DNA from: Candidatus Tayloriibacteriota bacterium
GTDB taxonomy: Bacteria > Patescibacteriota > Minisyncoccia > Phycocordibacterales > SIBU01
Length of the DNA stretch: 64,000 bases
NCBI GenBank assembly: GCA_009695005.1
Contig: SIBU01000002.1
Location: 7,274-71,273, forward strand
Direction: 5' to 3'
Under the pieces are notes generated by a model, which made no database searches, was not told the DNA's origin, and saw only the letters and a list, made by a program, of their open reading frames with translations. The position numbers and the translations under genes were made by a program. Each line of letters opens with the position of its first letter. The first letter of the stretch is position 1. Below, one piece after another: positions 9,639 through 55,866 of this stretch.

Positions 9639-10613
9639 TTATTCGTAATTTATTGTTTCAACCCTTCCTGATTTAGATGATTTTATAATCGCATCTAGTA
9701 TGATTGCTTGGTCGAGGAAGGCTTTGTTGTATTGAAGGTAAGACTCGGGTTTAATTTTTGCATAATGGTTAAACATTTCTAGAAAAGAATCGGAAGATTC
9801 TACTGGAATATCTTTGGCAATGTTGCGCGATCTGTAAAGGATGTTATTAGTGTAATCTTTCGGCGCCGTAAACGCTCGGTCCAAAGACAAATAAAAACCA
9901 GAACCCCACAGGTCTAAATTATTTCTATATTCCAGGTCAAAACCGATATCACCTTGTAAAGTTTTGCTTTCTCCGAAATCAATTGTAACCGCGGCTAGCA
10001 TCGGGATACCACTCTGTTTATTGATACTTACCGAACAGTACACCTTTTTCGGTCTACTGTTGAAATAATACTGACCAACCGAAACTAAGTAGGGGCCTAA
10101 GTCAAAGAGACAGCCTCCTCCAAGTTTTTTGTCGTTGCGGTAGTTATTTTTTTCTAGTGGAGGAAATCCAAATTGAACACTAATTTTATTCAGTGAAGAA
10201 GTTTGAGATTCTAATATAATTTTCAACTTTTGATGCTGGCTGTGATAAAGGTAGGGGATTGACTCAAAAATCAATAATTGATTATTTGCCAATTGGTAGC
10301 ATTTTTTCGCTTCTTTTTTTGAGAGTACTGCAGGCTTATCCACGATAATATTTAATTTTCTTTTCAAGCAGTAATCAATCAATTTGTAGTGTGATGAATT
10401 TTGCGTGGAAATATAAACGGTGTCACAGCCACTTTTCTCGATCGCTCTCTCATAATTATCAAAAATAGGTAGGTCGGAGTTGATTTTCGAAGCCTTGGTT
10501 TGTGAAGCGATGCCTACTAAGGTCACTTTTTTATGATTTTTTATAGCAGGAATTATTGCCTTTTGGGCAATAGCTGAATATCCAATGAGTAGAATTTTAT
10601 TTTTTTTTATCAT
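9639..10613 (-). CDS. Gfo/Idh/MocA-family oxidoreductase, putative NDP-hexose 3-ketoreductase (KijD10/OleW type)
   Basis: N-terminal Rossmann (KILLIGYSAIAQKAIIPAI). GFO_IDH_MocA layout (..DTVYISTQNSSHYKLIDYCLKRKLNIIVDKP..). Its stop lies 6 bp from the 2,3-dehydratase gene start, which implies a coupled function. Confidence 0.5.
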   Translation of the reverse strand: MIKKNKILLIGYSAIAQKAIIPAIKNHKKVTLVGIASQTKASKINSDLPIFDNYERAIEKSGCDTVYISTQNSSHYKLIDYCLKRKLNIIVDKPAVLSKKEAKKCYQLANNQLLIFESIPYLYHSQHQKLKIILESQTSSLNKISVQFGFPPLEKNNYRNDKKLGGGCLFDLGPYLVSVGQYYFNSRPKKVYCSVSINKQSGIPMLAAVTIDFGESKTLQGDIGFDLEYRNNLDLWGSGFYLSLDRAFTAPKDYTNNILYRSRNIAKDIPVESSDSFLEMFNHYAKIKPESYLQYNKAFLDQAIILDAIIKSSKSGRVETINYE

Positions 10614-10619
10614 TTAGCG

Positions 10620-11348
10620 TCAAAGTGGACTGAGGATTGCCTTTACATATGGATTAACTATATTATCAACTAACATTAAAGCTTTTATTTCCGATAGAGA
10701 TAGCCAAATAAAATTATCATTTTCTTGCAGGGGAAGTTTAACTCCTGGCTTCAACAGATTTAATCTGCTCACGTTGCTTTTTTGCCAGAATCTTCCACCC
10801 TCCTCATTCTGACTGGCGGAATAAATAATTGTTGTATCGGGATGGTCAATATACTCGCTAAGAATAGGTTTGTGGCCCGAGTGATGTTGTCTCAGGTTAC
10901 TCATCGTTGCTTGGATAGAAGGTCCGAATTGAATTCTATTAATATTTCCACCCTCAAACTTGGCCTGCAATAAAAATTTAATCTCCCCTTTAATTTCTTG
11001 ACACAAGATAACCAAGTAGCCCCCTTCTTCCTGGACTATAATTGGCTGATCCCAACCAGAGACCTCGGAACTATTCGCATTTTGCACTCTTATTCCTTGA
11101 ACTGAAAAAAAATGACTGGTGCCTGCTTTGTGTCTGACCATCCCTTCTTTCTCTGAGTAAATCCAATCTTTCAATGAAGAAATTGGGAGTATCTGAATCG
11201 TCGATTGGTTTTTTGCTCTTTTTTTATGTAACCAATCCGTAGCGCGTTTAATATTCACTTTTGCTTTTTTCTTGTTAGAAAAAACTTTTGACCTTAGTTC
11301 ATTTAACCTTTTAGTATAAACTCGGGAGTTATTTTTAACCGTTTCCAT
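10620..11348 (-). CDS. NDP-hexose 2,3-dehydratase-like protein, single domain (half the size of EvaA/TylX3)
   Basis: Motifs HFFSVQGIRV, DQPIIVQEEGGYLVIL, LLQAKFEGGN, SQNEEGGRFW and FIWLSLSEI align (from memory) with the C-terminal Nudix-like repeat of 2,3-dehydratases. Only one repeat is present (242 aa). Confidence 0.5.
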   Translation of the reverse strand: METVKNNSRVYTKRLNELRSKVFSNKKKAKVNIKRATDWLHKKRAKNQSTIQILPISSLKDWIYSEKEGMVRHKAGTSHFFSVQGIRVQNANSSEVSGWDQPIIVQEEGGYLVILCQEIKGEIKFLLQAKFEGGNINRIQFGPSIQATMSNLRQHHSGHKPILSEYIDHPDTTIIYSASQNEEGGRFWQKSNVSRLNLLKPGVKLPLQENDNFIWLSLSEIKALMLVDNIVNPYVKAILSPL

Positions 11349-11358
11349 GGTGGAATAA

Positions 11359-11387
11359 ATTATATATAGACCTATTTATATTTGCAA
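11359..11387 (-). promoter_or_regulatory. Candidate sigma70-like promoter for the 2,3-dehydratase/3-ketoreductase unit (-35 TTGCAA, 17-nt spacer, -10 TATAAT, ~10-nt leader)
   Basis: Minus strand reads TTGCAA-N17-TATAAT-ttattccacc-ATG(11348). Hexamers are at 11382-11387 and 11359-11364. AT-rich background makes chance matches likely. Confidence 0.3.
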
Positions 11388-11623
11388 ACTTGTATAAAAG
11401 ACTACCCATTTTCCCACTTTCTGAATGGCCGTTGATATTATTTTTGTAAAACAGGAAGCGATTTCAAACGTCAGTTTTCACTGAAACAAGTTAAGTTTTC
11501 TTTCAGGCTCAAGAATGAAAATAGCAGGTGCACGAACAGGCCCGCCACCGATATGATTTTGAATTTTTTTAAACCGCTTTACTAAATTGAGTGTGTTGAT
11601 TCCAGAATTACGTTAATCATGTT

Positions 11624-12487
11624 TTACGCTTTTCTATCAAACACACTATTTGATTTCAGTATTTTTGAAATACTCTGGGGGTAATAGTTCAAAGTGGTGT
11701 ATGTTTGAATACAATCCATAGATAAATTTGCTAATCTGATATCTTTTGATAAATCTAATTCTTCGGGGATAATCAGACTTGTGTCAAAATTAAAATGTTC
11801 TGCTATTTTTAAAGCAAAATCATATCTAGATAGACTTTCTGATCCTGCACAGTGAAATATTCCTCGATGCTCCTTTTCGATAATAATTCGAAGCATATTA
11901 CATAAATCTCCAATATAAGTAGGATTGTTTATTAGATTTACATAGGCATGAAAATTTCCCTCCCGTTTTAATTTCGTGTATACCTCATCAACAAAATCGT
12001 TTTTTGTTCCAAAAATTCCGCCTATTCGTACTATGACAAAATCAATCAAATTATTTCTTATCAGGTTCTCAGTTGCCAGTTTATCTTTCCCGTATTGCGT
12101 AGTTGGCACTGCAACTGATAATTCATCATGTTTATGAACGCCGTCAAAAACAGCATCTGTTGAAATATAAATCAATTTTATTTTATTTTCAAAACACTGT
12201 GAAATGATATTTTCTGAAGCTTCAAAATTAATTCTTCTTGAAAAAATCTTATCTGCTTCACATTTAGCCATATCCTTGCTTCCAGCAAGATGGAGAATAA
12301 TGTCTGGGGAAACAGATTTAATATATTGATTTGTTTTTATAAAGTCAGTTAAATCAACGTTACGGACATTTTCATGAATATGGGTATTAGAAAATCCAAT
12401 AGGAATAATTTGGTTTTCCTCGTCAGGAAGCATTCGCAATAATTCGCTACCGATATAACCAGTTGCACCGGTCATCAGAATTTTCAT
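11624..12487 (-). CDS. RmlD-like dTDP-4-keto-6-deoxyhexose reductase
   Basis: MKILMTGATGYIGSEL Rossmann. ISTDAVFDG (RmlD STDYVFDG motif). 287 aa is RmlD size. ATG at 12487. Confidence 0.6.
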   Translation of the reverse strand: MKILMTGATGYIGSELLRMLPDEENQIIPIGFSNTHIHENVRNVDLTDFIKTNQYIKSVSPDIILHLAGSKDMAKCEADKIFSRRINFEASENIISQCFENKIKLIYISTDAVFDGVHKHDELSVAVPTTQYGKDKLATENLIRNNLIDFVIVRIGGIFGTKNDFVDEVYTKLKREGNFHAYVNLINNPTYIGDLCNMLRIIIEKEHRGIFHCAGSESLSRYDFALKIAEHFNFDTSLIIPEELDLSKDIRLANLSMDCIQTYTTLNYYPQSISKILKSNSVFDRKA

Positions 12488-12760
12488 TTTATCATTTAGG
12501 AAAATTTTGATAATAACACTGAGACAATTAACAACTTCTTTCGATATTCTTAATTTGTTGACCTGTAAATATTTTCCGTATCCAGTGAAAATCTGGGGTT
12601 AAACTCATCGGAATTGGGAGTAAAAAATATATCCATCATGTACGTTTCGCTTTTTTGAAAGCAGATGTCATGTTAAAGCCCGTAAATCAGTTGCCGTCTG
12701 GGACAAGAATTTTTTTCATAAGGTTGAATATAATTTAATTACTTACCGTTCGTCTTAAAA

Positions 12761-14122
12761 TTATTTCTTGATTTTCTTGGTTGTTACTGTTTTTTTATAT
12801 TCCTCCGCTCCCACAATTCGAGGAAAGGGAATGGGGATAATAAATTTACCTCCTTTGTCGCTAAAATCTTTGAGGTTGGCAATGATTTCCTTGGAAAAAT
12901 TCCAAGCTAGAAGTAGTGCATAATCCACCCCTTCGTTTATGAGTTCTACGTCGGAGACGACAGGAACGTGTCCACCGCCATGGCCACCCGGTGCGAAGCG
13001 GCCAATTTTCAAGCGCGCTCTTTCCGAAATAAGTTTGATGTGTCGGTTTGAAACTCCGATGTAATTTAAAAGAGTCATGCCTTTGGCAGGAGCCGAAACC
13101 ACCGCCAACTTTTTTCCTTGGTGTAGTAGTTTTTCAATAATCGTCATGAGTTCATCGCGATTTTTTCTAACACGTTTGGCAAAATTAAGCATGGTTTCCT
13201 TTTCGTGGAGTTTTGATTCTTTTTCAGCTTGAAGGAATTTTTGGACACTTGCATCAATCGAACGTGTACCGGTCCTTGCTATAAACACTCTGATGGAACC
13301 GCCATGAATATTGGTTTCTCTAATCATAAATATTTCCAAACCAAATTTGGCGAAGAAAGAAATGAGGGGTTTTATGGAAAGGTAAGACAGGTGTTCATGA
13401 TATACGGTATCGTATTCAAGATTTTCGACGAGGTGCTGAAAATACGGCGACTCAAAGATGAAAACCCCGTTCTTTTTAAGGATATATTTTACCGCGCGCA
13501 TTATTTCGTGCAGATCATCTATATGCGCGAACACGTTTGTGCCGACAATGACGGAAGCTGCGCCGACAAGTTTTTTGACTTTTTTGGCGCTTTCCATGCT
13601 GAAAAAATCGCAGATAGTCTTAATACCGTGTTCTTTGTTGGCTATTGCAACGATATTCGGAGCGGGATCAACCCCGATGGTTTTCATTCCCAGCTCTTTG
13701 AAAGATTTAAGAAGTGTGCCGACATTGCTTCCGATATCGACAATAACGTCATCTTTTTTTAATGAAAGGTCGGCGGTGATGGATTCCGCGAAACTGCCCC
13801 AGTGAGCCTGACCCGTTTTGGTCATCGATTGCTCGTAAGGATAGTCTAGTTGATATAGGACTTTCGGGTTGACTATATGACTTAACTGCGAGAGTCCGCA
13901 ATTTTCGCATAAAAGGACTCGTAGCGGATAAGAAATTTCCGGGATATCTAGTTCGTGCGCCGCTCTGAATTGGTCCGCGGGTGGAGTTAAACCCATGTCA
14001 AGATACAAGAAGAGTTTAGGGCTTTTGCACATTCGACAGACGGATGTTACACGATAGAGGTCTTTTACCGCTTCAGCCTGGATGTCTTTTTGCTTATGAT
14101 TTGTTTTTCGGTTGATAGTCAT
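12761..14122 (-). CDS. NDP-hexose C-methyltransferase, TylC3/NovU/EvaC family (Zn-ribbon + MTase + C-terminal domain)
   Basis: N-terminal CxxC...CxxC ribbon (CRMCKS...CENCGLSQL). Class I MTase motif (VIVDIGSNVGTL). Typical family length. ORF start at 14137 is TTG; the first ATG is at 14120-14122 (MTINRK..). Confidence 0.6.
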   Translation of the reverse strand: MTINRKTNHKQKDIQAEAVKDLYRVTSVCRMCKSPKLFLYLDMGLTPPADQFRAAHELDIPEISYPLRVLLCENCGLSQLSHIVNPKVLYQLDYPYEQSMTKTGQAHWGSFAESITADLSLKKDDVIVDIGSNVGTLLKSFKELGMKTIGVDPAPNIVAIANKEHGIKTICDFFSMESAKKVKKLVGAASVIVGTNVFAHIDDLHEIMRAVKYILKKNGVFIFESPYFQHLVENLEYDTVYHEHLSYLSIKPLISFFAKFGLEIFMIRETNIHGGSIRVFIARTGTRSIDASVQKFLQAEKESKLHEKETMLNFAKRVRKNRDELMTIIEKLLHQGKKLAVVSAPAKGMTLLNYIGVSNRHIKLISERARLKIGRFAPGGHGGGHVPVVSDVELINEGVDYALLLAWNFSKEIIANLKDFSDKGGKFIIPIPFPRIVGAEEYKKTVTTKKIKK

Positions 14123-14401
14123 ATAATAAGATGCCAAATTCTTGCATATTTTTTTCTGATTTGCAACATCTGTAATGTATCACGACCTTCGCAATACATG
14201 AAGTAAAATTATGTATGTTCCAGACACGATAAATTTCCAAATCTTGCTTTACTTTAGACTAGGGATGCAATAAAGACCTTTCCTAAAAGATTCCGACTCC
14301 AAAAATAAATATGAGTAAGGTGAAGGAAGTGGAAGAAAATAGCAGAAAAAATTTCGTGTAAAGAATCAGCTAGGAAAAGCCTGTTTAAAAAATTGTGAAA
14401 A

Positions 14402-15667
14402 TTATCTGGCGGATTTTTTATCAAAACGATCTATGCATGCGTTCAGCTTGTTGCTTAGATTGCTAAAGGACCATCTTTCCAAAACTTTTTTACCGTTTAG
14501 TACGAGTTGTTTCTGAAGATTTTCGTCTTTAGAAAAGGAATGAATTTTTTCGGCAATATCCTCCGGGTTACTTGGATCGAACAGGAGAGCTGCATCAAAA
14601 ACTTCATCCAATATTCCGGGAACATTTGATTGAAGAACTGGCTTGTCCATGAACCACGCTTCGATTGTTGGGGTTTGAATCCTACCCATAAAGCTTGGAA
14701 TAATCATTGCGGAACAAAGGGCAAATAACGCACTCATTTCATCATTGTCGGCATAGCCAATCAGGTGGATTTGGTTTTCAATTTTTAAATCCTTGATTTT
14801 CTGGAGTACCTTCTCGTATTCTCCCCACAGTTCTTGTTTGCTTCCGGGTAGAACAAGGTGGAAAATTTCCCCTTTGTCTCGAAGAATTTTAACAGCCTCT
14901 ATCAAATTTCGATGGTTTTTATGGGGCCAAAATTGGGCTGGATAAAATAAAAAACCTGGGGGGAGACTGTGTTTTAGGGCAACTTCCTTCTTTTTCTCTT
15001 CCGAAACGTTTTTTGTCAGATAGATAGGTGGAGCGCACCGTATGACTTCCACAGTATTTTCATCTCTGCCATAAATTTCACAGAACTCTCTCTTGTTTTG
15101 GTCGATTTCAACTATTACAATGGTTGCCTTTTTGGCCACATTTTTATATAGGTATTCCCTTTTTTCCCACTGTCCTAAAGACCAAACTTCTGGAAATTGC
15201 CTGTTGAATCTGTGCTGAAGTTCGTGGACCACTACCAGCGAAGGAATGTTTGACAGATAAGACATTTCCGAAGGCCCGTGATAGACCATAAGGTCTATCC
15301 CGTGACCTTCAAAGTTAAGTGCTCTTTTTTTAGAGTTCAGCCTCGCCAAGAAAATTTCAACCCTGTACAGTCGGAGTGCGCGGAGAAGATTTATTATCAA
15401 CAAATTTATTTTTCTGCGGAATGTTGGTGCAACAGATTTTTCTTCGTTGACACTTTTGCCTTCCTCGGAATTTTTTATCCTTTTAAATCCAATAGGAACT
15501 ATTTTCCAGTTCGAATCCTTGAAATCTTCAAAAGGAAAATCAGGGGAAAGGGTGAATATGATGTAGTCATGTTTTTTATTTTCCTTAAATGCGGCAAGCA
15601 TATTGACGGCGTATTGGTATACGCCACCGGATTTCATATTGCATTCGAAATAGAAGCCTATTTTCAT
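14402..15667 (-). CDS. GT4 (GT-B) glycosyltransferase
   Basis: C-terminal Glycos_transf_1-like region (HLVLPGS...IHLIGYADNDEMSALFALCSAMIIPSF...EAWFMDKPVLQSNVPGILDEV). ATG at 15691 or 15667 (MKIGFYF..); the latter is chosen by analogy with GT4 N-termini. Confidence 0.5.
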   Translation of the reverse strand: MKIGFYFECNMKSGGVYQYAVNMLAAFKENKKHDYIIFTLSPDFPFEDFKDSNWKIVPIGFKRIKNSEEGKSVNEEKSVAPTFRRKINLLIINLLRALRLYRVEIFLARLNSKKRALNFEGHGIDLMVYHGPSEMSYLSNIPSLVVVHELQHRFNRQFPEVWSLGQWEKREYLYKNVAKKATIVIVEIDQNKREFCEIYGRDENTVEVIRCAPPIYLTKNVSEEKKKEVALKHSLPPGFLFYPAQFWPHKNHRNLIEAVKILRDKGEIFHLVLPGSKQELWGEYEKVLQKIKDLKIENQIHLIGYADNDEMSALFALCSAMIIPSFMGRIQTPTIEAWFMDKPVLQSNVPGILDEVFDAALLFDPSNPEDIAEKIHSFSKDENLQKQLVLNGKKVLERWSFSNLSNKLNACIDRFDKKSAR

Positions 15668-15862
15668 ATTATGTTTCGATAATGGTAGCATGTATATATA
15701 GGGTTTTCCACATATACTGTAACAATCGAAAATTGCTGTAGTTACAAGACGATATGATGTGTGAAGCGGATTTCTCAGCGATTTAGCCCTACTTACTAAA
15801 TTAAATAGTTAATTATTTCATCAAGTAGGATATGAAAGAGTGCTGTGCTAGTATTGTTGACT

Positions 15863-16654
15863 ATGAATGCACAAATTGTATCGACCTTGGGTCCATCTAG
15901 CGGAAGCGAGAAAGTTTTGGTAGCAATGATTAAGGGAGGTATAAATATAGCTCGATTAAATTTTTCATGGGGTACTCATGAGGAGCATGGCTTACGTGTA
16001 GATAACCTTCGTAAGGCTGCCAAAAAACTTAAAAAGAGGATCCTAATCCTTCTGGATTTGTCTGGGCCAAGAGTGGCTGCTAAAGGTGGACATCATTTTG
16101 ACGGTGTAAGTAAAAAAATATTGACTAAAAAGGATATAAACGATCTTAATTTTGCTAAGAAATATGGTGTTGATTACGTTGCCCTTTCTTATGTCGGATG
16201 TGCGGCAGATGTGGTAGATCTTAAAGAGGAGTTGAAGAAAAAAGGCGTTACCGCAAAAGTAGTTGATAAAATTGAAAGAAAGAAGGCTTTCGATAATTTG
16301 GATGAAATTTTGAAAGAAGCTGACGCCATTATGATTGCCCGCGGAGATTTGGGGAATGAAATTCCTTTGGAAAAAATTCCTTACGTTCAAAGTATTATTA
16401 TTGCCAGAGCCAAGGAGGCGGGGAAGCCGGTGATTACTGCAACAGAAATGATGATATCAATGGTTGAAAAATCAAGACCTTCACGTGCGGATGTTTCGGA
16501 TGTTACAGTTGCAATTTTAACCGGAACAGATGCTGTTATGCTTTCCGAGGAGACAGCTATCGGTAAGTATCCTGTTGAAGTTGTGCAGATGATGAAAAGA
16601 ATAGCCGTAGAAGCTTCTCGTCAGCCGTTCGCTAAACCTCTCAATTCTTTTTAG
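15863..16654 (+). CDS. Pyruvate kinase-like protein, A-domain (TIM barrel) only; lacks B (lid) and C (allosteric) domains
   Basis: PK signatures: IVSTLGPSS, INIARLNFSWGTHEEH, LLDLSGP, MIARGDLGNEIPLEKIPYVQSIII, PVITATEMMISMV, PSRADVSDVTVAILTGTDAVMLSEETAIGKYPVEVV. Only ~17 aa lie between DLSGP and the second barrel half. The protein ends at ~264 aa. ORF start at 15845 is GTG; ATG at 15863 gives the canonical MNAQIVSTLGP. Confidence 0.6.
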   Translation: MNAQIVSTLGPSSGSEKVLVAMIKGGINIARLNFSWGTHEEHGLRVDNLRKAAKKLKKRILILLDLSGPRVAAKGGHHFDGVSKKILTKKDINDLNFAKKYGVDYVALSYVGCAADVVDLKEELKKKGVTAKVVDKIERKKAFDNLDEILKEADAIMIARGDLGNEIPLEKIPYVQSIIIARAKEAGKPVITATEMMISMVEKSRPSRADVSDVTVAILTGTDAVMLSEETAIGKYPVEVVQMMKRIAVEASRQPFAKPLNSF

Positions 16655-16799
16655 TTTTAGTATCATTTTAGACCTGAAGTTAGAAGTTTTAGGGTGTGTT
16701 TGTTGTATTAAATTTATTTGACATATTATCATGTTCATGATAGTGCGAAATTCGGTTACTTAGTCAGAACATATAAAAATTCAATCAGGAAAGGTCAAT

Positions 16800-17351
16800 A
16801 TGACCGAATGGACATTTGATGAAATTGAAGAAGGTAAAAGAACCCTAGCACGAATCAAGGAAAGAGGATTTCCCGTTCCACTCGATATTATTTTTGGCTT
16901 AACTGAGTCATTTTTCACTATCGTCGTTGAGTGCGCCGTGGTTAAGCGGTTTGACCACGGACCTACTGGGGTCGAGTGGCAGACACTCTGGATTCGCCGA
17001 CCCTCGGATGATCGTTATTACCCCAATAGGTGGCATATGCCTGGGAAAATGCAATTACCAGGGATCAGCATTCCGAAAATGATTGAGAGGACATTAGCTC
17101 GTGAAGTAGGCGTTGCTGTCGACGGAAGTCTGGTTCCCAAAATTGGTTTTTTTGAGGATATTGGCGGTCGTCGAGGGCACGAACATCAGCACCAGTACTT
17201 TGTCACTGTGCCGCAAGACTCCGAAGTAAAAACGGAAAAGGGCGAGTCTCATGTTTGGTGCAATGTGTTTGGGGCTCCGCCTCAGCCAACCCTTCAACCC
17301 CATCTGAAACTTCTTGAAAACCTTCGAGATTTCCTGAGAAAGAAGATTTAA
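16800..17351 (+). CDS. Hypothetical protein with degenerate Nudix-like segment; GC-rich relative to flanks
   Basis: ATG at 16800 preceded by SD AGGAAAGG (16785-16792). Followed by a hairpin terminator. The segment RWHMPGKMQLPGISIPKMIERTLAREVGV resembles a Nudix box, but the catalytic Glu residues are not conserved. Local GC is visibly higher than neighbours. Confidence 0.5.
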   Translation: MTEWTFDEIEEGKRTLARIKERGFPVPLDIIFGLTESFFTIVVECAVVKRFDHGPTGVEWQTLWIRRPSDDRYYPNRWHMPGKMQLPGISIPKMIERTLAREVGVAVDGSLVPKIGFFEDIGGRRGHEHQHQYFVTVPQDSEVKTEKGESHVWCNVFGAPPQPTLQPHLKLLENLRDFLRKKI

Positions 17352-17370
17352 GATTCGGGCGATACCTAAT

Positions 17371-17405
17371 ACCCAACTACACTTGTGTGGTCGGGTATTT
17401 TTTTA
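17371..17405 (+). terminator. Rho-independent terminator (12-bp imperfect stem, 2-nt loop, T9)
   Basis: acccaactacac-tt-gtgtggtcgggt followed by atttttttt. Lies immediately after the 16800..17351 stop and abuts the convergent gene's stop (17407). Confidence 0.5.
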
Positions 17406-17406
17406 G

Positions 17407-18639
17407 CTAATATTTTTTAAGAAAATCAGTAAATATTTTTTTCATATAATCAAGCATTTCCGGAGTTAATCCTTGATGAGCACCTACTGCGAAGGTATCC
17501 TTCATTATTTTGTCGGCATTTTTGAGTTCCCCAACAACTCTTCGTGGTAAGTTTTTGTAAGCTGGATGTCTTAAGATGTTTCCCGCAAAGAAGAGTCTTG
17601 TTTGGATGTTTTGGCTTTCCAGGTATTTTACTATTGTAAAGCGGTCAAAGGGCGCCCCGTCTCTAATGGTAAGAGGGAATGCCAGCCAGCTTGATTTAGC
17701 ATTACTGTGTTCCTCCGGTAAAATAAAATATTTCTCATATTCCTTAAAAAACCTTTTTAAGGAATCAAAGTTATGTTTACGAATTTTAATTACATTCGGC
17801 AATCTTTTTAGTTGTTCTAGTCCGAAGGCGAACATCATTTCGACAGGCTTTAGATTAAAACCCATATGAGTATAAGTAAATTTCCTGTCATAATGAATAC
17901 CTGTAATTTTTGTGGTAAAACGCTTTTCTAGGCTTTCATCATCGTTAAGAGCTGCTCTACCCCATTCACGATAAGAATAAGCCGATTCGTATAATTTTTT
18001 GTCTGAAACCGCAACGATACCTCCGCCTCCTCCTGCCGTGATGTGATGTGAGGCGTAGAAACTTGACGTGGTTACATCACTGTAGGTTCCTGCCGGCTTT
18101 CCGTTGAATGTTCCAGCCATAGTGTCGCAACTATCATCTATGAGATAAAGTTTGTGCTTGTTGCAAAAAGCACGAAGTTTTACCATGTCATTTAAATTAC
18201 CAAAAGCGTGCGGAATTAATATCGCTTTAGTTTTTGGAGAAATCATTTTAGGAAGATTGTTGAGATCTAGGTTGTAAGTGCCAAGTTCAGAATCACCAAC
18301 TACAGGTACTAAATTATTGATATATATCGTGCTGTAAGTGGTAGAGAAAGTGCACGCAGGAGTGATTACCTCACTACCTGGAGGGAGATTTAATATTTTG
18401 AGGGCGAGTAGGTTTGCCGATGATCCTGAATTGACTACTATGCCGTATTTTTTTCCAAAAAGCTTGGAGGTTTTTTTTTCGAATTCCTCCACAATTGGTC
18501 CCATTCCAAGCCAGCCACGTTTGAGACAGGCTACTACTGCCTCTATTTCCTCTTCACCGTACACTGTTTGAGCATAGTAAACTTTATCTTTTCCTGGGGT
18601 AAACTTTCCTGACTTATTGTGTATTCCGTAATATTTCAT
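17407..18639 (-). CDS. PLP-dependent NDP-4-keto-6-deoxyhexose 3-dehydratase, E1/SpnQ-like (His in place of Lys)
   Basis: DegT fold (VVNSGSSANLLAL ... SFYASHHITAGGGGG ... YREWGR). The HH motif is at the Lys position. The E1-type FRDWGR-like motif is present. ATG at 18637-18639. Confidence 0.55.
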   Translation of the reverse strand: MKYYGIHNKSGKFTPGKDKVYYAQTVYGEEEIEAVVACLKRGWLGMGPIVEEFEKKTSKLFGKKYGIVVNSGSSANLLALKILNLPPGSEVITPACTFSTTYSTIYINNLVPVVGDSELGTYNLDLNNLPKMISPKTKAILIPHAFGNLNDMVKLRAFCNKHKLYLIDDSCDTMAGTFNGKPAGTYSDVTTSSFYASHHITAGGGGGIVAVSDKKLYESAYSYREWGRAALNDDESLEKRFTTKITGIHYDRKFTYTHMGFNLKPVEMMFAFGLEQLKRLPNVIKIRKHNFDSLKRFFKEYEKYFILPEEHSNAKSSWLAFPLTIRDGAPFDRFTIVKYLESQNIQTRLFFAGNILRHPAYKNLPRRVVGELKNADKIMKDTFAVGAHQGLTPEMLDYMKKIFTDFLKKY

Positions 18640-19564
18640 AGCGTTTGTAGTGGTTGATAATTTTTTTCAGGCCCTCAGTATAATCTATTTGCGCGTGCCA
18701 ACCAAGTTTATTTATTTTTGAGGTATTGGCTACAAAGTTGGTGATTCCCACTGCATTATGAAAGGCAGGTGGCGGTATCGGAGTTATTTTTGATTTATTG
18801 CCGGTATGTTCCAGTATGTAATTAATCATATCCTTAAATTGCACTGGTTTCCCATAGCCAATTAGATAAGTTTCGTTGACCGCTTTATTTTCTAAGAAGT
18901 GGAGAGCATCAATTACATCATCAATATAGATGTAATCTCGCTTAAAATTTCCACCATGATAGACGTTTAAATTTTCACCTCGGATAGCTCTCATTACTGC
19001 AAAATTGAGCCATGCTTTTTTCGGATCATCAAAAGTTTCACTAGCGCCGTACACGTTTGTAAATCGGGCAATGAGGTAGGGAATTTGATATAGGCGAGAG
19101 TAGAGTTTTAGAATTTCTTCGGTTGCTAATTTGGTAATTCCATATAATCCCAAAGGATCAATTTTACTCTCCTCGGTTATCGGTTTTTTTGTATTATCGT
19201 ATTCGTTGCCGTAAACTTGAATTGTTGCCGGATAAATTATTTTCGGTTTTTTTGTTAAATCTTTGCATAATTCTAAAATTCTCAACGTTCCCTTTATATT
19301 TGTATCAACGTCGACAGAAGTGTCGGTCAGGACGTGATAATTGTGTGTTGTGCTCGCACAGTGGTAAATGCAGTCAACTCCTTCGATGTCATTTTTTGTT
19401 ATGGCCGATATATCCTTTATTAAAATTTTGACATTTTTGTTTTTAATACGATTTTTATCTTTTGAAGATCTTGAAATTACGGTGATGGAACCCTTAAGTG
19501 AGTTTGCTATGGCTGATCCAATAAAACCTAAACCGCCAGTTACTAGGTATTTCTTTTTTTTCAT
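18614..19564 (-). CDS. NAD-dependent epimerase/dehydratase (extended SDR)
   Basis: YLVTGGLGFIGSAI Rossmann. YGITK (YxxxK). 26-bp overlap with the downstream E1-like gene. Confidence 0.6.
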   Translation of the reverse strand: MKKKKYLVTGGLGFIGSAIANSLKGSITVISRSSKDKNRIKNKNVKILIKDISAITKNDIEGVDCIYHCASTTHNYHVLTDTSVDVDTNIKGTLRILELCKDLTKKPKIIYPATIQVYGNEYDNTKKPITEESKIDPLGLYGITKLATEEILKLYSRLYQIPYLIARFTNVYGASETFDDPKKAWLNFAVMRAIRGENLNVYHGGNFKRDYIYIDDVIDALHFLENKAVNETYLIGYGKPVQFKDMINYILEHTGNKSKITPIPPPAFHNAVGITNFVANTSKINKLGWHAQIDYTEGLKKIINHYKRYEILRNTQ

Positions 19565-19566
19565 GA

Positions 19567-20556
19567 CTATTTATTTTTATAAAAAGACAGTGTAATCAAT
19601 AAACCTTCGTCAAAAGAAACTGCTGGTTTCCAGCCGAGCTCTACTTTTATTTTTGTACAGTCCAGTGAGTAACGAAAATCATGACCTGGGCGATCTGGTA
19701 CGTACATAATATAGGAGTTGTCGAGTTTGTGGAAAGCAAGTAATTTTTTTGTAAGTTCGAGATTGCTTAGTTCTGTGTTACCTGCAATGTTATAAACTTC
19801 ACCACTTTTCCCACTCTGAAATACCAAATCAATTGCTCTAATATTGTCCTCAACGAACAACCAGTCACGTATCTGGGCGCCCTCTCCATACAACGGAACT
19901 TTTTTGCCTCTTGAAAGATTGGTGGTAAAAAGAGGTATAAGTTTGCTTTTGTCTTGATGTGGACCGTAATTGTTGGAAGATCTGGTAATAATAATATCTA
20001 GACCAAAAGTATGGTGGTATGAATGTACAAGACGATCTGCTGCTGCTTTTGACGCACTGTAAGGATTGCGTGGCATAAGAGGGGAGTCTTCGGTAAAGAC
20101 CCCTTTTTTTGTTGCAAGTGCCCCGTATACTTCGTCGGTTGAGATAAAAAGAAATCTTTTTGTTTTGAATTCTCTCGCTAAAATAAGTAAATTGTGAGTT
20201 CCCATGACGTTTGTTTCTATAAACAGACTAGGGTTTTTTATACTTAAATCTACATGACTTTCCGCTGCGAAATGAATTATGTCAGTTGGCTGATATTTTT
20301 TAAAAATTTTACGTAAATTTGAAATGTTTCGTATGTCCGCTTTTTCAAAAATGTAATTTATTTCCTTATCAATTTTAATGTTATCGATGTTTGCCGCGTA
20401 GGTTAGGCTATCAATATTGATAAACAGTGTGTCGGGATAAGCGACTACAAATTTATTCAAATAGTGACTTCCGATGAAGCCGGCACCGCCAGTTACTACA
20501 ATTCTTTTTTTGTAGGAAGGGGGTGATTTTTTTGAATTACTTCTTTTTGTTGTCAT
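19567..20556 (-). CDS. rmlB: dTDP-glucose 4,6-dehydratase
   Basis: IVVTGGAGFIGSHY, HFAAESHVDLSI, TNVMGTHNLL, STDEVYG and YSASKAAAD are all RmlB hallmarks. ORF-track start is TTG (20601); the first ATG at 20556 gives MTTKRS... Confidence 0.7.
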   Translation of the reverse strand: MTTKRSNSKKSPPSYKKRIVVTGGAGFIGSHYLNKFVVAYPDTLFINIDSLTYAANIDNIKIDKEINYIFEKADIRNISNLRKIFKKYQPTDIIHFAAESHVDLSIKNPSLFIETNVMGTHNLLILAREFKTKRFLFISTDEVYGALATKKGVFTEDSPLMPRNPYSASKAAADRLVHSYHHTFGLDIIITRSSNNYGPHQDKSKLIPLFTTNLSRGKKVPLYGEGAQIRDWLFVEDNIRAIDLVFQSGKSGEVYNIAGNTELSNLELTKKLLAFHKLDNSYIMYVPDRPGHDFRYSLDCTKIKVELGWKPAVSFDEGLLITLSFYKNK

Positions 20557-21283
20557 TATTTTTATTGCGAATAAAATTTGCAGTTTCAAGCAAACTGTCA
20601 AACGTGCCTATATCGAACCATTCTTTTTTTAAAAAGATACCATGAAGTTTGCCATCCTTGATATATTGCTTGTTTATGTCGGTAATTTCGTACTCACCTC
20701 TCTCTGATGCTTTGAGACTTAAACATTTCTTAAAAACTGTACTGTCATACATATAAACACCGGTCACAGCGTAATTGGTCTTTGGTTTGGTTGGTTTTTC
20801 ATCAATATCTAGAATCTTGCTGTTTTGTCCAAGTGTAGCAATGCCGAATCTTTCAGGGTCCGCTACTTCTTTTAGAAACACCGTCGCTCCACTTTTGAAT
20901 TTTTTTATGTGTGGTGTTAGGTCGTCTTCAAAAATATTGTCGCCAAGATACAGCACACAGTTATCATTACCGATGTAATCTTTGGCGATCCATAAGCCGT
21001 AAGCAATGCCATTGGGCTGGTTTTGGATACCGTAGACAATTTGTATTTGCTTGCCGGTGCGTTTTGACATGAAATCAGCCCCTGAACCGAGAAGTTTAAC
21101 CATAGATTCGATTGCTTCAGGTGAAGTGACAATCATGATTCGGTCGATTCCAGCGTCTACAAGTTTTTTGACCGCGTAATAGATTACAGGCTTATCATAT
21201 AGAGCAAGTAGATGTTTGTTGGTAGAAACGGTTAAAGGACGAAGTCTGGTTCCACCACCTCCGGCGAGTATAATCCCTTTCAT
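20537..21283 (-). CDS. rmlA: Glucose-1-phosphate thymidylyltransferase-like sugar nucleotidyltransferase
   Basis: MKGIILAGGGGTRLRPLTVSTNKHLLALYDKPVIYY matches the RmlA N-terminus (MKGIILAGGSGTRLYP...IYDKPMIYY). ORF-track start is TTG (21337); the canonical ATG (MKGII) at 21283 is used. Confidence 0.6.
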   Translation of the reverse strand: MKGIILAGGGGTRLRPLTVSTNKHLLALYDKPVIYYAVKKLVDAGIDRIMIVTSPEAIESMVKLLGSGADFMSKRTGKQIQIVYGIQNQPNGIAYGLWIAKDYIGNDNCVLYLGDNIFEDDLTPHIKKFKSGATVFLKEVADPERFGIATLGQNSKILDIDEKPTKPKTNYAVTGVYMYDSTVFKKCLSLKASERGEYEITDINKQYIKDGKLHGIFLKKEWFDIGTFDSLLETANFIRNKNNDNKKK

Positions 21284-23779: not shown

Positions 23780-24800
23780 ATAAAAAATAAAATTTAAATA
23801 TCCGTCCTATGGTTTTTAGGTCTATTTTAATCCAGCTTCGAATTATAGAATTCCAGAAAATTTTTTTTACTTTTTTACCGAGTTTCAACGAAAGTCTGCA
23901 ATAGGTGAGCCACTCTTGACTTAGAACTTTTTGCAAGGCTTTTTGGTTGTATACTTTACTGGTTTCATTGGCATTATCTATTTTCAAAAACCACTCAGAG
24001 ATTTTTAATAAATCCTCAGGACTTGAAAGTTTTCGGTACTGGCGGACGTTTTCATACAAAGCTTTTTCATCGGTAGATAGAGGTATACCAAGTTTTCCAA
24101 AAGCATCAGCACAGATACTGTCGCGTACCACTGCTTGTTTCTCAGGTGTTTTGTAACTTGCCTGGTCTTCATGAGTTCTGTAATAGAGTAGAACTTTCGG
24201 TATGTTGGCAATTTTCACCACCTTTGAAGCTCTGTACCAAAACTCGTAGTCTTCAGTGCGTTCAAGTGTTGGGTCATAACGTAGATTAAGTTCATTAAGT
24301 ATTTGTTTTCGCATCATCACCGTTGGATGGATCAGGGATGAATGAAAAAGTAGGCTTGCCCGGATTTCCTCATGGTTAAGAGGGTGGCGCATCGTTATAC
24401 CGGGATTTCTCCCGATAGTTTTGGCATAAGAACCCGCAATGGTAATTTCTTGATGTTCCTCCATAAACTTGATTTGGGTTTCAAATCTGTGAGGTAGTGA
24501 GATATCATCACTATCCATCCTGGCTATATATTCACCTTTTGAGAGGTCAATTCCATGGTTTAGGGCAGCGGGAAGATATGTCAAATTCGCATCACGTCTG
24601 ATGTGGTAGATACGAGAGTCTTTGAAATTACTGATAATTTCAAGACTTTCTGTGCTGGTGTTAGCCGAGCTTAAAATTATTAATTCAAAATTTGTATAAG
24701 TTTGTTTAAGGATGCTGTCTATTGCGTCTGTAAGAAAAGCCTCGCCGTTGTGGACTGGCATAATCACACTTATCAAGGGTAAACGTTTTGAATTAATCAT
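23766..24800 (-). CDS. GT2 glycosyltransferase
   Basis: ISVIMPVHNGEAFLTDAIDSILKQTYTNFELIIL and ARMDSDDISLPHRFE (DxD) motifs. ATG at 24800. 14-bp convergent overlap with the previous gene. Confidence 0.65.
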   Translation of the reverse strand: MINSKRLPLISVIMPVHNGEAFLTDAIDSILKQTYTNFELIILSSANTSTESLEIISNFKDSRIYHIRRDANLTYLPAALNHGIDLSKGEYIARMDSDDISLPHRFETQIKFMEEHQEITIAGSYAKTIGRNPGITMRHPLNHEEIRASLLFHSSLIHPTVMMRKQILNELNLRYDPTLERTEDYEFWYRASKVVKIANIPKVLLYYRTHEDQASYKTPEKQAVVRDSICADAFGKLGIPLSTDEKALYENVRQYRKLSSPEDLLKISEWFLKIDNANETSKVYNQKALQKVLSQEWLTYCRLSLKLGKKVKKIFWNSIIRSWIKIDLKTIGRIFKFYFLSSAK

Positions 24801-25777
24801 AAACTTGAGAAAATTATCTCAGAACCTTCGTGTGTGAAGGAAAAAGGGACCTCCCGTAATTTTGAAAGCGCCTTTCTTAATTTGGTTTGATTGGACCTTT
24901 CACAATAGAACAATAGAAAACCCCCTCCGCCAGCGCCCAGAAGTTTTCCGCCCGAAGCACCATTTTTTAAAGCTAGTTCGTAATAATTATTAATTTCGAC
25001 ATTTGAAACATTGTCAGCAATTGATTGTTTGAGCATCCAGCTGTCATGTAAAAGTTTACCGAAATTTTCTAAGTCATCAGATTCAAGTACGGTTTTCATG
25101 TGATGTGCCATTTCTACCATGTGCTCTAAGGTTGCAACAACTTCATTTGATTTTATGATATTTTCTTTTTGTTTTTCCAAAATATTGTTGGCGGATCTTG
25201 TAACTCCTGTATAAAAAAGCAATAGATTATTTTGAAGTTTCTCTAAGGTTTTTGGTTTTATTTTTACTTCTTCAACTGTGACTTTTCCGGAAGGCATAAA
25301 TTGGATGAAATTAATTCCACCAAAAGAGGCGGCGTATTGGTCTTGTTTTCCAATAGGTGATTTGAGATGCAAAATTTCTGTTCTGCAGGCTCGTTTGGCT
25401 AGTTCCTCTGGTGATATGGTTTTCTTTTGGTAAGCGGATACAAGATGATGTAACCCTACTGCAAATGAACTTGAAGACCCAAGACCAGTTTGGGCCGGTA
25501 TGTCTGCGATAACTTCTATTTCTACACCATTCACTTTGTACTCACTTAGGATACTACGGGCGATGTTGTTTTCGAGATCTTTAGGATGATCTACATCTTC
25601 GGTTTTTTTGTATTTTAGTAGGATTTTTTCCTTGTTGAAATTTGGATGTATGGCCAGATAAATGTATTTATTTATAGTTACACTTAAGACAGCCCCCTGG
25701 TGCTTGCTATAAAATTCCTGTTGATCTGAGCCGCCACCGGCGAAACTTACTCTAAATGGGGTACGGGTAATAATCAT
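24797..25777 (-). CDS. GHMP sugar kinase of the HddA/fucokinase type (COG2605)
   Basis: N-terminal IITRTPFRVSFAGGGSD (compare HddA PLRISFAGGGTD). PAQTGLGSSSSFAVGL is the GHMP ATP motif. 4-bp ATGA overlap with the downstream gene. Confidence 0.55.
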   Translation of the reverse strand: MIITRTPFRVSFAGGGSDQQEFYSKHQGAVLSVTINKYIYLAIHPNFNKEKILLKYKKTEDVDHPKDLENNIARSILSEYKVNGVEIEVIADIPAQTGLGSSSSFAVGLHHLVSAYQKKTISPEELAKRACRTEILHLKSPIGKQDQYAASFGGINFIQFMPSGKVTVEEVKIKPKTLEKLQNNLLLFYTGVTRSANNILEKQKENIIKSNEVVATLEHMVEMAHHMKTVLESDDLENFGKLLHDSWMLKQSIADNVSNVEINNYYELALKNGASGGKLLGAGGGGFLLFYCERSNQTKLRKALSKLREVPFSFTHEGSEIIFSSL

Positions 25778-25885: not shown

Positions 25886-26764
25886 TCAACCTGGATCAAC
25901 TTGGAGTAGGTGGGCATGTGGGTGTGGCATGTTTTGACCACCAAAGGTGCCGGCGTGTATTCCAAATTGAACTGGAAGGTTGGGATATTTTCGTTCCCCG
26001 CACAAAACAAGAATCAATTCTAGAATTTCAGACAGCATCGGAAGAGGAAGGAGCTGTGTCTTTGTCTCGAGAGGGTTACTTTCCAGCCACCTTTTGTTCG
26101 GCACAATCATTTTGTGCCATGGGTGGGGGGTGCCTTGGTTATCGAAAACAATCAAATTATCTACATTAATCGGATTTAGCACTTCGCCTGAACAAAAACT
26201 GCAGGCCTGACTCGACAGATGAGTCAGATTACCCTCTCCCCAAGCACGCCTCATTTTTGTCCGTATCAGTTCCACACCGCACCTTGTGCCACCGCTCGTA
26301 ACTTGTTTTTCAAGATGAAGTTTGTGGTAGTCTGCCGTTTCTTTCACAAAGAATACTTGCCCGGCGCGAATACCACCGACGAGAGCTTTCCACCCTCCCT
26401 GTTTGTCCAGCAATAAATCACCGTCGGGTTCATCGGTGTCTGTGAGATAACGCCATGTGTCGATGTGAGGCCACGGCAAGGTGAACTTACCCATTCCGTA
26501 AGCCAGTTTGTCGAACTCGGTGAATCCCCAATGGTTTAGGATGGGTAAATAATAGGCCATCAATTTTCCGTCGGAGTTAATCGTTACCGATAGGAGAAAA
26601 GAAGGGCCGATTCCGGTGTTTGGATTCGCGAATTTTTTCTGACAAAGGTCAATCGTGTTCCATATCAGGACCACTAGATCATTAAGCATTTTCATTATCC
26701 GGGCTCCTTTTGTTGAATTTTCAGGCTGAAGACAGTTGGTTAATTTCTGCTTCAAATAATACAT
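25886..26764 (-). CDS. GalT-like HIT-superfamily sugar-1-phosphate nucleotidylyltransferase/phosphorylase (putative)
   Basis: CSFCSGE (CxxC Zn motif) and MPHPHAHLLQ (compare GalT HPHGQ). Size ~290 aa. GC-richer than flanks. Own terminator. Confidence 0.4.
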   Translation of the reverse strand: MYYLKQKLTNCLQPENSTKGARIMKMLNDLVVLIWNTIDLCQKKFANPNTGIGPSFLLSVTINSDGKLMAYYLPILNHWGFTEFDKLAYGMGKFTLPWPHIDTWRYLTDTDEPDGDLLLDKQGGWKALVGGIRAGQVFFVKETADYHKLHLEKQVTSGGTRCGVELIRTKMRRAWGEGNLTHLSSQACSFCSGEVLNPINVDNLIVFDNQGTPHPWHKMIVPNKRWLESNPLETKTQLLPLPMLSEILELILVLCGERKYPNLPVQFGIHAGTFGGQNMPHPHAHLLQVDPG

Positions 26765-41170: not shown

Positions 41171-41854
41171 ATGGAAACTAATACTAATGCTAGGGAAATT
41201 TTTGTTCGTAACAGAGCAAAGTTTGCCGGTCTTTTTGAGAGAATTAAGGCAATCCATCACGAAATTGTTGTCGCTGGTCGCGATGTCAACGGGCACGGAT
41301 TTGACCATGACGTCATGGTTGCACAGTATGCTGCCATGATTTCGGAAAATGAACGTGTTGCTGAGATGGCGTGGGTTGCAGGACTCATGCATAGCCTCGA
41401 CCGACACTTTCCCGATAGCTTTAATGCTAAAATAGAGGAATGTATTGTTTTGGTCGGGCACCTGTTTTCAGTGGCTGAAATCGAAGAGATTCGAGTGGCG
41501 GATAGGGTTCACTCACGTCTGAACGATCCCTTGGACGGACCCGTGACAATCGCGCTCAAGGATGCTGATCGGTTGGCCAATGTCGGTGCGCTCAACATTA
41601 TTCGTGGTGGTCAGCATCGACCTAACATTCCTGCCTGTGTGATGGAGTCACTTGGTGGTCTTAATCCAGCATCAACTTTTAAAAGACCCGCCAGTTGCTA
41701 TGATGCAACTTTTTACAACCTAGAGTGGTGGGATATGTTGCGATCGGAGAAAGCCCGTGATCTTGGGAGAGCCGATTTTGAATATACCAGGGCCTGGCAG
41801 CGGAGCGTCGAAGCAAAGTTTGCTCAAGTTGGCCTTTTCCCTTGGAAAACATAA
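41171..41854 (+). CDS. HD-domain-like phosphohydrolase (putative); GC-rich island
   Basis: HHEIVV...GHGFDHDVMVAQYAAMI...LMHSLDRH is an H..HD..H..D pattern. Preceded by a GGGGG SD-like run. On the opposite strand to its flanking operons. Confidence 0.4.
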   Translation: METNTNAREIFVRNRAKFAGLFERIKAIHHEIVVAGRDVNGHGFDHDVMVAQYAAMISENERVAEMAWVAGLMHSLDRHFPDSFNAKIEECIVLVGHLFSVAEIEEIRVADRVHSRLNDPLDGPVTIALKDADRLANVGALNIIRGGQHRPNIPACVMESLGGLNPASTFKRPASCYDATFYNLEWWDMLRSEKARDLGRADFEYTRAWQRSVEAKFAQVGLFPWKT

Positions 41855-41986
41855 AATTCGAACCACTCTCTTTAAAGCGCAATCTAAGGTTGCGTTTTTT
41901 TATTTGCAAGTTAACCAGACATTGACTTTGTGTATTATTTAGGGTATCTTTCTAAAAGAATTTTGTAGAATATAGAGAAATAATAA

Positions 41987-42958: not shown

Positions 42959-42974
42959 TGGCTAGTATAAGTAA

Positions 42975-43009
42975 AAGATGTGGTATTGAATCCACGTCTT
43001 TTTTATTTT
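42975..43009 (+). terminator. Candidate rho-independent terminator after AKR gene
   Basis: aagatgtgg-tattgaat-ccacgtctt followed by ttttattttc (one mismatch in the stem). Confidence 0.35.
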
Positions 43010-55615: not shown

Positions 55616-55866
55616 TTGTTTTGCTGGTTTAAGTATCACCTGTTCCAATTTCGGTTGGGGCAGGTTTTTTTATGTCGAGGAATTGCCTCGACAGAGAGTT
55701 CGTGTGGTGTAATTTCAAACCCGTCGTTTTAAAATTGCTCTGGAGTAGGGTAAATCTTTGGAGTATGATTAAGTTGTGTATTATTGTGAGTGATGGATGT
55801 CGTTGATTGCGATTATGCGATGTTGGTTTAGACTCGAGTTTTATAGGTTCTCTGTTTTGTAATTTT

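Follow-up and report, generated by a model that had tools for sequence, protein, structure and literature searches.

The 64,000-nt stretch analysed here (hereafter the window) is a genome fragment of a member of the candidate phyla radiation (CPR; Parcubacteria/Paceibacteria); it has a GC content of 38.5%, and a glycan locus fills most of it. This study concerns one gene of that locus, located at 16800..17351 on the + strand, which starts with ATG and encodes a predicted stand-alone Nudix-fold protein of 183 amino acids (aa). The protein is 100% identical to the NCBI hypothetical protein EXS46_00495 of a Candidatus Taylorbacteria bacterium. A first-pass annotation, made from the nucleotide sequence, had called the same open reading frame (ORF), which our analysis confirmed, and had described it as a compositionally distinct cassette inserted into the glycan locus and as the first of four GC-rich islands.

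Convergent with the focal gene lies a gene (17407..18639, − strand) for an RfbH/E1/ColD/SpnQ-type, pyridoxamine 5′-phosphate (PMP)-dependent nucleoside diphosphate (NDP)-hexose 3-dehydrase of the DegT family. Pfam identifies its product as DegT, and with the NCBIfam RfbH model, whose cut-off is 423, it scores 412 bits. In the alignment, a histidine replaces the catalytic lysine for pyridoxal 5′-phosphate (PLP) in the sequence SFYASH, and this exchange of His for Lys is a hallmark of 3-dehydratases (PMC8987622). Because of the RfbH-model score and the histidine at the PLP-lysine position, we assign the protein to the E1/ColD/SpnQ-type NDP-hexose 3-dehydrases, and it is likely the functional partner of the focal gene. 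The other members of its operon encode RmlA (20537-21283), RmlB (19567-20556) and a short-chain dehydrogenase/reductase (SDR; 18614-19564). Further genes of the glycan locus encode a GFO/IDH-type ketoreductase (9639-10613), a single-domain NDP-hexose 2,3-dehydratase of 242 aa (10620-11348, −), an RmlD-like reductase (11624-12487, −) and a sugar C-methyltransferase (Methyltransf_13/14; 12761-14137, −). The gene set at 9639-21283 looks like a pathway to a deoxythymidine diphosphate (dTDP)-linked di- or trideoxy, C-branched hexose. Its occurrence in a CPR genome recalls antibiotic-type dTDP-deoxysugar synthesis. The focal gene is also flanked by a gene for a 'mini' pyruvate kinase (PK-like) of 263 aa (15863-16654, +), which is reduced to the A-domain barrel, has neither B lid nor C-terminal domain, and aligns with the Pfam PK profile in two separate stretches. 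Similar PKs, about 250 aa long, also occur in metagenome-assembled genomes (MAGs) of Paceibacterota and Kaiserbacteria and in one MAG labelled Saccharibacteria, with flanks that are not syntenic. When the PK-like gene was used as an anchor for finding a sister genome, its best relative among the GTDB species representatives was 55% identical and not syntenic.

The focal gene itself is monocistronic, has its own terminator and converges with the RmlA-RmlB-SDR-3-dehydrase operon, in agreement with its earlier description as a self-terminated single-gene unit. The intrinsic terminator (17368..17404, +) consists of a 13-pair stem with one internal mismatch, a 4-nt loop and a run of seven T residues (T7). 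Its hairpin (17368-17399) lies in the 55-nt gap between the convergent genes, with the T-run on the + strand, and a 66-nt stretch containing the hairpin folds at −18.6 kcal/mol (z −3.2 relative to shuffles). A strong hairpin with a T-run also ends every other island gene (25880-25856, 41874-41898, 42973-43002 and 55638-55665).

The proposed initiation signals fared less well. The hexamer TTGACA is present at 16718..16723 (+), where the first-pass annotation had placed a perfect −35 box, but the window contains 39 copies of this hexamer with 47 expected by chance, no acceptable −10 box lies 16-18 nt from the copy at 16718, and the promoter scan did not return this site. We rejected it as a −35 box because its frequency does not exceed chance and no −10 box pairs with it. 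The sole −10-like element upstream of the focal gene that could be read from the sequence is TATAAA at 16773..16778 (+), itself without a −35 partner; if used, it would give a 5′ untranslated region of approximately 15 nt that holds a weak Shine-Dalgarno (SD)-like purine run. This run, AGGAAAGG (16787..16794, +), ends 5 nt 5′ of the ATG and had been taken for a canonical SD sequence. Its duplex with the anti-SD has an energy of −5.3 kcal/mol, and 18% of random 19-mers from the window reach −4.5 kcal/mol or better, so that the value falls within the background and the designation as canonical SD was dropped. The accompanying view that the native genes lack SD sequences does hold: the genome is SD-poor, as only 3 of the 59 genes have a duplex at least as strong as −6 kcal/mol, fewer than random sequence would give. 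The two strong SD sequences of the window belong to the islands at 41171 (−9.8 kcal/mol, G-rich) and 54554 (−11.5 kcal/mol), not to the focal gene. No Rfam motif and no unusual structure was detected in the 145-nt region upstream of the focal gene. Several first-of-operon genes in the window have a TATAAT-like box that ends 7-11 nt before the start, for example those at 10620-11348 (−), 21469, 24797-25777 (−), 52082, 43003-43932 (−) and 56975; this spacing in the sequence suggests that leaderless mRNAs may occur in this genome.

Profile searches with the focal protein gave a sub-threshold match to the Pfam family NUDIX (PF00293; 19.5 bits versus a gathering cut-off of 21.1, E 1.1e-3), and none of the Nudix or Gmm models of NCBIfam was matched at E ≤ 1. 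A word-indexed search of 5.8e9 clustered proteins returned two matches, which were the focal protein and a single homologue, P0002, with 56% identity. Exhaustively searching 1.84e9 cluster representatives with HMMER yielded 75 proteins at E ≤ 1e-3, of which 9 reach E ≤ 1e-10; nearly all are 170-200 aa long. Scanning metagenomes with a two-sequence alignment gave no match, and with an 8-sequence alignment only three loci. The family alignment that we used for all residue counts below comprises 24 members; 20 of these 24 relatives match PF00293 at E ≤ 0.01. An AlphaFold2 model calculated from this alignment reached a predicted local distance difference test (pLDDT) score of 95.8 and a predicted template modelling (pTM) score of 0.88. 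It consists of two N-terminal helices, a Nudix beta-grasp with its helix at residues 91-103 and a long C-terminal helix, with no further domain. Foldseek returned 514 matches in the PDB at E ≤ 1e-3, and all 50 of those displayed are Nudix-fold structures with a probability of 1.0; the top matches are MutT-like Nudix hydrolases, NrtR, Gmm and AraR (E 4e-10 to 1e-7). The predicted structure thereby shows the focal protein to have a Nudix fold, the alpha/beta/alpha arrangement of about 130 residues that defines the superfamily.

The Nudix box of this protein is degenerate. The consensus of the full box is GX5EX7REUXEEXGU, and at the position of its REUXEEXGU part the focal protein has RTLAREVGV. 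It retains R14, U16, E19, G21 and U22, but E6, E15 and E18 are replaced by Ile, Thr and Arg, respectively. In the family as a whole, none of the 24 members has Glu15 and two have Glu18; Arg14 is found in 16 and Glu19 in all 24. Residues R67, H79, G82 and E102 of the focal protein are invariant in the alignment, and E44, D71, W78, R125 and H168 nearly so. The missing box glutamates and the score below the Pfam gathering threshold set the focal protein apart from canonical Nudix hydrolases. The focal family is a small, uncharacterised variant within the Nudix superfamily.

Ten further neighbourhoods of family members, whose proteins are 20-30% identical to the focal protein, could be read, which gives 11 loci with readable flanks including the window. 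An NDP-sugar or glycan setting was found in 10 of the 11. A DegT-family gene lies at most two genes from the Nudix-like gene in four loci, and in three of these it encodes an RfbH/ColD-type 3-dehydrase. In locus L003, the start of the Nudix-like gene overlaps the stop of the gene for an RfbH-type 3-dehydrase that is 48% identical to that of the window, with RmlA-like, SDR, GT2 and split transketolase genes around them. In L033, it is divergent from two DegT genes, one of which encodes a His-type dehydrase (41% identity), followed by RmlC, SDR and GT2/GtrA. In L026, it is convergent with DegT-FdtA-SDR, after GT1, GT2 and PMT_2, an arrangement that matches that of the window. In L005, the Nudix-like gene separates an SDR from an RmlC-RmlD fusion, RmlA and UDP-glucose dehydrogenase. 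The Nudix-like genes of L009/L029, L027/L031 and L030 lie beside an SDR and a split transketolase, with RmlA/RmlB-like proteins, methyltransferases and glycosyltransferases (GTs); that of L028 is near an SDR and a sugar C-methyltransferase of the window's type, and that of L004 follows GtrA, YfhO, PMT_2 and GT2. L006 is an exosortase neighbourhood with no sugar genes near the family member. The contig of the closest homologue (L001) is too short to judge the context. The family is a recurrent accessory component of NDP-sugar and glycan loci in uncultured bacteria, largely CPR. In four independent glycan loci the Nudix-like gene is adjoined by a split transketolase, with its N and C halves encoded by separate genes, and an SDR (L003 4703-7378, L009 316-3167, L027 2697-5129 and L030 5157-7883); this module may add a two-carbon branch to an NDP-sugar.

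This setting also bears on the simplest assignment, by which the protein would be an ordinary housekeeping Nudix pyrophosphatase of the MutT, ADP-ribose or NTP clean-up kind that lies next to glycan genes incidentally. The weak Pfam match, the MutT-like structures at the head of the Foldseek list and the name 'ADP-ribose pyrophosphatase YjhB', given automatically to one relative by the Joint Genome Institute (JGI), fit such a role. However, the canonical REUXEE glutamates are missing family-wide, the family is found so consistently in NDP-sugar loci, and the window already contains a canonical NUDIX gene at 60561-61022. We consider a housekeeping function very unlikely.

Among the closest known systems is GDP-mannose mannosyl hydrolase (Gmm/NudD/WcaH, 1RYA), likewise a small Nudix protein that stands alone and whose gene lies within polysaccharide clusters. 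With the E. coli Gmm sequence, verified against 1RYA, hhalign gave a probability of 94% (E 1e-7) and placed RTLAREVGV on the Gmm box RLTMAELGL. Glu15 and Glu18 are lost in both boxes, while Arg14, Glu19 and Gly21 are kept. The two proteins also have a similar N-terminal segment ahead of the first strand, and Foldseek matched them at E 2e-8. They differ in that their identity is only about 12-15%, that the family invariants H79, R125 and H168 are not those of Gmm, and that the loci of the focal family belong to dTDP/NDP-deoxy- and amino-sugar pathways, whereas Gmm belongs to GDP-mannose pathways. By sequence, the family is nearer to the NrtR/COG1051 branch than to Gmm. GDP-sugar glycosyl hydrolases have diverged in mechanism, and the loss of Nudix-motif residues is the mark of this divergence; such losses occurred more than once and are the signature of a non-canonical mechanism in which the glycosidic bond is cleaved (PMC5389931).

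By analogy with Gmm, we propose that the focal protein would bind an NDP-(deoxy)hexose that the locus produces. The protein might then hydrolyse this compound in a non-canonical, Gmm-like manner, releasing NDP and the sugar, by means of a metal, the one Glu that is left and the invariant His and Arg residues; alternatively, it might sequester the NDP-(deoxy)hexose instead of hydrolysing it. Either way, reactive NDP-4-keto-deoxysugar intermediates would be trimmed or proofread, much as GDP-mannose is by gmm/wcaH in the clusters of enterobacteria. Non-canonical hydrolysis of an NDP-sugar for pool control or for the removal of reactive 4-keto intermediates is a plausible role on this analogy, to which we would give somewhat less than an even chance. 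A bolder version, which we regard as unlikely, is that the family represents a second, independently evolved lineage of Nudix NDP-sugar cleavers with Gmm-like or other chemistry (His79, His168, Arg125, Glu102), specialised for dTDP/NDP-4-keto-deoxysugar intermediates; it would then be a laterally mobile 'editing' or pool-control module in CPR deoxy- and amino-sugar pathways, notably beside PMP-dependent 3-dehydrases.

Most of the following observations weigh against a Gmm-like hydrolase. Box Glu6 is kept by 13 of 24 relatives but is lost in the focal protein. In Gmm, His124 is the catalytic base and Tyr103 is also a functional residue. The His124 position is unconserved in the family, where it falls in a gap and the nearby column has Gly in 10 of 24; a histidine near this column (H151) is found only in the focal protein and P0002, two residues off. 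Tyr103 aligns with Y133, where 13 of the 24 members have Y, 6 have F and 4 have H. Moreover, the solved structures nearest to the focal protein by sequence are non-catalytic, ligand-sensing Nudix domains, which makes a binding-only role a serious alternative as judged from these matches.

In a profile search of the PDB sequences, the best matches were 2fml (E 6.7e-10), NrtR (3gz5 and 3gz8; E 6.6e-7) and AraR (5bs6; E 1e-5), with E values from 7e-10 to 1e-5, and Gmm followed at 1.4e-3. NrtR, AraR and 2FML share a degenerate Nudix box with the focal protein, and an 'RG' motif after the Nudix helix is common to both (R125-G126 in the focal protein, 'DPRG' in the regulators). NrtR/AraR-type domains bind sugar or ADP-ribose ligands. 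The focal protein could accordingly be a non-catalytic ligand-binding Nudix domain, a stand-alone sensor of the NrtR/AraR type that binds an NDP-sugar or sugar and modulates a partner, such as the RfbH-type 3-dehydrase or an SDR, by protein-protein contact. The loss of two or three metal-binding glutamates and the translational coupling of the gene to that of the 3-dehydrase in L003 are consistent with such a sensor. Non-catalytic Nudix domains, though, typically sit in multidomain proteins (PMC5389931), and NrtR and AraR carry a C-terminal winged-helix DNA-binding domain, whereas the focal protein stands alone at 183 aa without a DNA-binding or other domain; the alignments with 2fml and 3gz5 end at the boundary of their Nudix domain. 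The focal gene is found in biosynthetic loci, in contrast to NrtR and AraR, which lie upstream of regulons. In addition, the constellation of invariant H79, E102 and R67 with nearly invariant R125 and H168 resembles a catalytic one, and the partner gene varies among loci, with no single conserved protein partner. A contact-dependent sensor seems doubtful to us, and we are similarly reserved about binding alone, as a sensor or chaperone of the NDP-(deoxy)hexose.

A further comparison is suggested by the EvaA-type NDP-hexose 2,3-dehydratases (EvaA, SpnO; PF03559), which belong to the Nudix superfamily, have two domains, occur in deoxysugar loci and act on dTDP-4-keto-6-deoxyhexoses (PMC8987622). 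The copy in the window (10620-11348) is single-domain, and the focal protein could be conceived as the missing second Nudix-like half of this split enzyme. EvaA, however, has two PF03559 domains, while the focal protein is one 183-aa domain and had no PF03559 (Hexose_dehydrat) match at E ≤ 1. Alignment of the family with the 2,3-dehydratase of the locus by hhalign gave a probability of 0.1%, and a Hexose_dehydrat gene lies beside the Nudix-like gene in none of the 10 other family loci. We rejected the pairing at the sequence level on account of the hhalign result and the lack of an accompanying gene elsewhere, and hold it to be extremely improbable.

As to its origin, the focal gene had been singled out for its base composition, and this claim holds in part. 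All composition statistics refer to the 59 ORFs of the window, and the synonymous shift is the observed GC content minus that expected from the protein and the codon usage of the window. The GC content of the focal gene is 0.471, compared with a gene mean of 0.387 (standard deviation (sd) 0.032; z 2.65), and its GC at third codon positions (GC3) is 0.44 versus 0.355 (z 2.1). The focal gene and the genes at 25886, 41171 and 54554 form an upper GC tail of 0.46-0.48, and all remaining genes are at or below 0.432. The protein alone predicts a GC content of 0.441 for the focal gene (z 2.3 among genes), and its ratio of GARP to FYMINK residues is 1.09 versus 0.62 (z 2.7). The raised GC of the focal gene is mainly the consequence of a GARP-rich protein, with a modest synonymous excess. 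Nor is the region conspicuous at 1-kb resolution: 16501-17500 has a GC content of 0.419, and values of 0.42 or more occur in at least eight stretches elsewhere. At synonymous sites, the gene that deviates most is that of the C-methyltransferase, 12761-14137 (z +3.9, GC3 0.435), which the first-pass annotation had not listed, and the adjoining RmlD-like gene 11624-12487 is shifted towards AT (z −4.2, GC3 0.23). Because these adjacent genes are shifted in opposite directions and more strongly, we regard the locus as a compositional mosaic in which the focal gene is a moderate outlier.

Taken as a group, the four islands do not bear out the cassette reading. The aldo-keto reductase (AKR) gene at 41987-42958 shows no synonymous GC shift (z −1.07), and its GC is accounted for by amino-acid composition alone. 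Its neighbour in the same island, 41171-41854 (+), is the highest-GC gene of the window (0.478), encodes the most GARP-rich protein (z 3.35) and has a faint HD-domain match (E 0.13). No gene of the window exceeds 25886-26764 (−) in GC3 (0.478, z 3.75); its product has only a faint HIT/GalT-like match (E 0.08), and the gene adjoins a GHMP sugar kinase gene of native composition (24797-25777, −). The GC skew is positive almost throughout 1-62000, and the cumulative skew climbs nearly monotonically, so that the + strand is G-rich across the window. This explains why islands on the + strand are enriched in G at third positions and those on the − strand in C, and a shared donor as the source of the A-to-G third-position shift of the + strand islands was rejected for the same reason.

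The fourth island (54554-55615, +) encodes a hypothetical protein without a Pfam match and has the strongest SD of the window. An ortholog with 50% identity is present in Ca. Taylorbacteria GCA_016188455.1 (L032 10001-11083), a genome with 50% GC, in the syntenic order CTP_transf_3 - Wzy/TPR - X - MurB - DUF1189 - SecA. The sister contig, JACPHR010000018.1, was read over its right-hand part. Its neighbours are 48-74% identical to their orthologs in this sister genome, a range that includes the 50% of the island protein itself. The sister gene has kept a strong SD (GGGAGG) and the terminator, and its GC3 is native there; 21 homologues were found, all of them unannotated. Because of the syntenic sister ortholog we consider island 4 ancestral. 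The first-pass annotation had read the four islands as four acquisitions, and had itself named synteny in relatives as what would speak against this; that is what we found for island 4. Downstream of SecA, the window contains the canonical NUDIX gene 60561-61022 (+; Pfam E 3e-16), and L032 has a NUDIX gene at the same position, although the BLAST match between the two products spans only 30 residues. A bacterial SET-domain protein is encoded nearby at 61637-62239 (+).

These data can be read as the signature of a native, vertically inherited Taylorbacteria gene, whose GC content would result from a GARP-rich protein combined with sampling noise or slower drift towards AT. Several findings argue for this reading and against lateral acquisition. 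Of the GC excess of +8.6 points, approximately 5.3 points (~60%) come from amino-acid composition and approximately 3.3 points are synonymous. The synonymous shift itself is modest (z3 = 2.4, rank 4/59) over 182 codons. Island 4 is ancestral and yet has the same GC3 of 0.44 as the focal gene, so that GC-richness in this genome does not by itself indicate acquisition. No flanking repeats or target duplications were found around the focal gene. There are no tRNA or known RNA elements and no mobility genes (integrase, transposase) in the window, no relatives of the focal protein on phage, plasmid or viral contigs, and no PHROG or PADLOC matches. The 56% identity of P0002 falls within the 48-74% seen between syntenic orthologs of the two Taylorbacteria, and its GC3 of 0.64 is close to the value of 0.63 that is typical of the sister Taylorbacteria with 50% GC, so vertical orthology at 56% is possible. 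For the same reason we downgraded the GC3 contrast at L001 (0.64 versus 0.45-0.47 in the neighbours), which could have been taken as strong evidence of a GC-rich donor: there are only two neighbours, both encode low-complexity secreted proteins, and 0.64 is normal for a Taylorbacteria genome with 50% GC.

Other findings argue against plain descent. Only one close homologue was found in 5.8e9 proteins, despite the presence of other Taylorbacteria MAGs in the database. No homologue with ortholog-level identity was retrieved from the other named Taylorbacteria records, among which island 4 does have one; the argument is indirect, as the MAG of the sister is possibly incomplete. In 6 of the 11 loci the GC3 of the family member deviates from that of the adjoining genes by about 2 sd or more, upwards or downwards (window +2.1, L004 +2.0, L009 +2.7, L026 +2.8, L030 +3.4 and L033 −2.2); the offset in L006 is −1.7, and L003, L005, L027 and L028 stay within about 1.2. 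In the window, the genes around the focal gene also form a compositional mosaic. The gene of the closest homologue, L001, has its own promoter-like site, a GAGG sequence and a hairpin terminator. Lateral exchange is hinted at by the GC3 offsets in both directions, by the patchy distribution and by the stand-alone architecture shared with this homologue. Weighing both sides, we consider vertical inheritance possible, though clearly short of an even chance, and lateral acquisition of the focal gene about evenly balanced.

The notion of a cassette inserted into the glycan locus is supported in part. The patchy spread and the GC3 offsets are in its favour, but the hallmarks of mobility are absent. 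Given that its family recurs in NDP-sugar loci, the focal gene cannot be called foreign to the glycan locus in which it lies. It is probably a patchily distributed accessory gene, a single-gene unit that is exchanged between the glycan loci of genomes that differ in GC content. GC patches alone should not be read as acquired cassettes, because the GC excess is largely protein-driven and one of the islands is ancestral.

Taken as a whole, the explanation that we favour, a Nudix accessory of the sugar pathway that hydrolyses or binds an NDP-sugar and is laterally exchanged, appears slightly on the probable side. Surface glycans are probably central to the host attachment of ultra-small CPR bacteria, and the sugar pathways of these organisms are almost unstudied. 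If the explanation is true, these pathways would gain a step of pool control or proofreading, carried out by a conserved but unannotated Nudix-like accessory whose gene accompanies those for NDP-deoxysugars. After Gmm, this accessory would also be a second case of a Nudix protein that has lost its canonical metal ligands and serves polysaccharide synthesis. The link of this uncharacterised Nudix family to deoxysugar biosynthesis in CPR bacteria is clear and testable.

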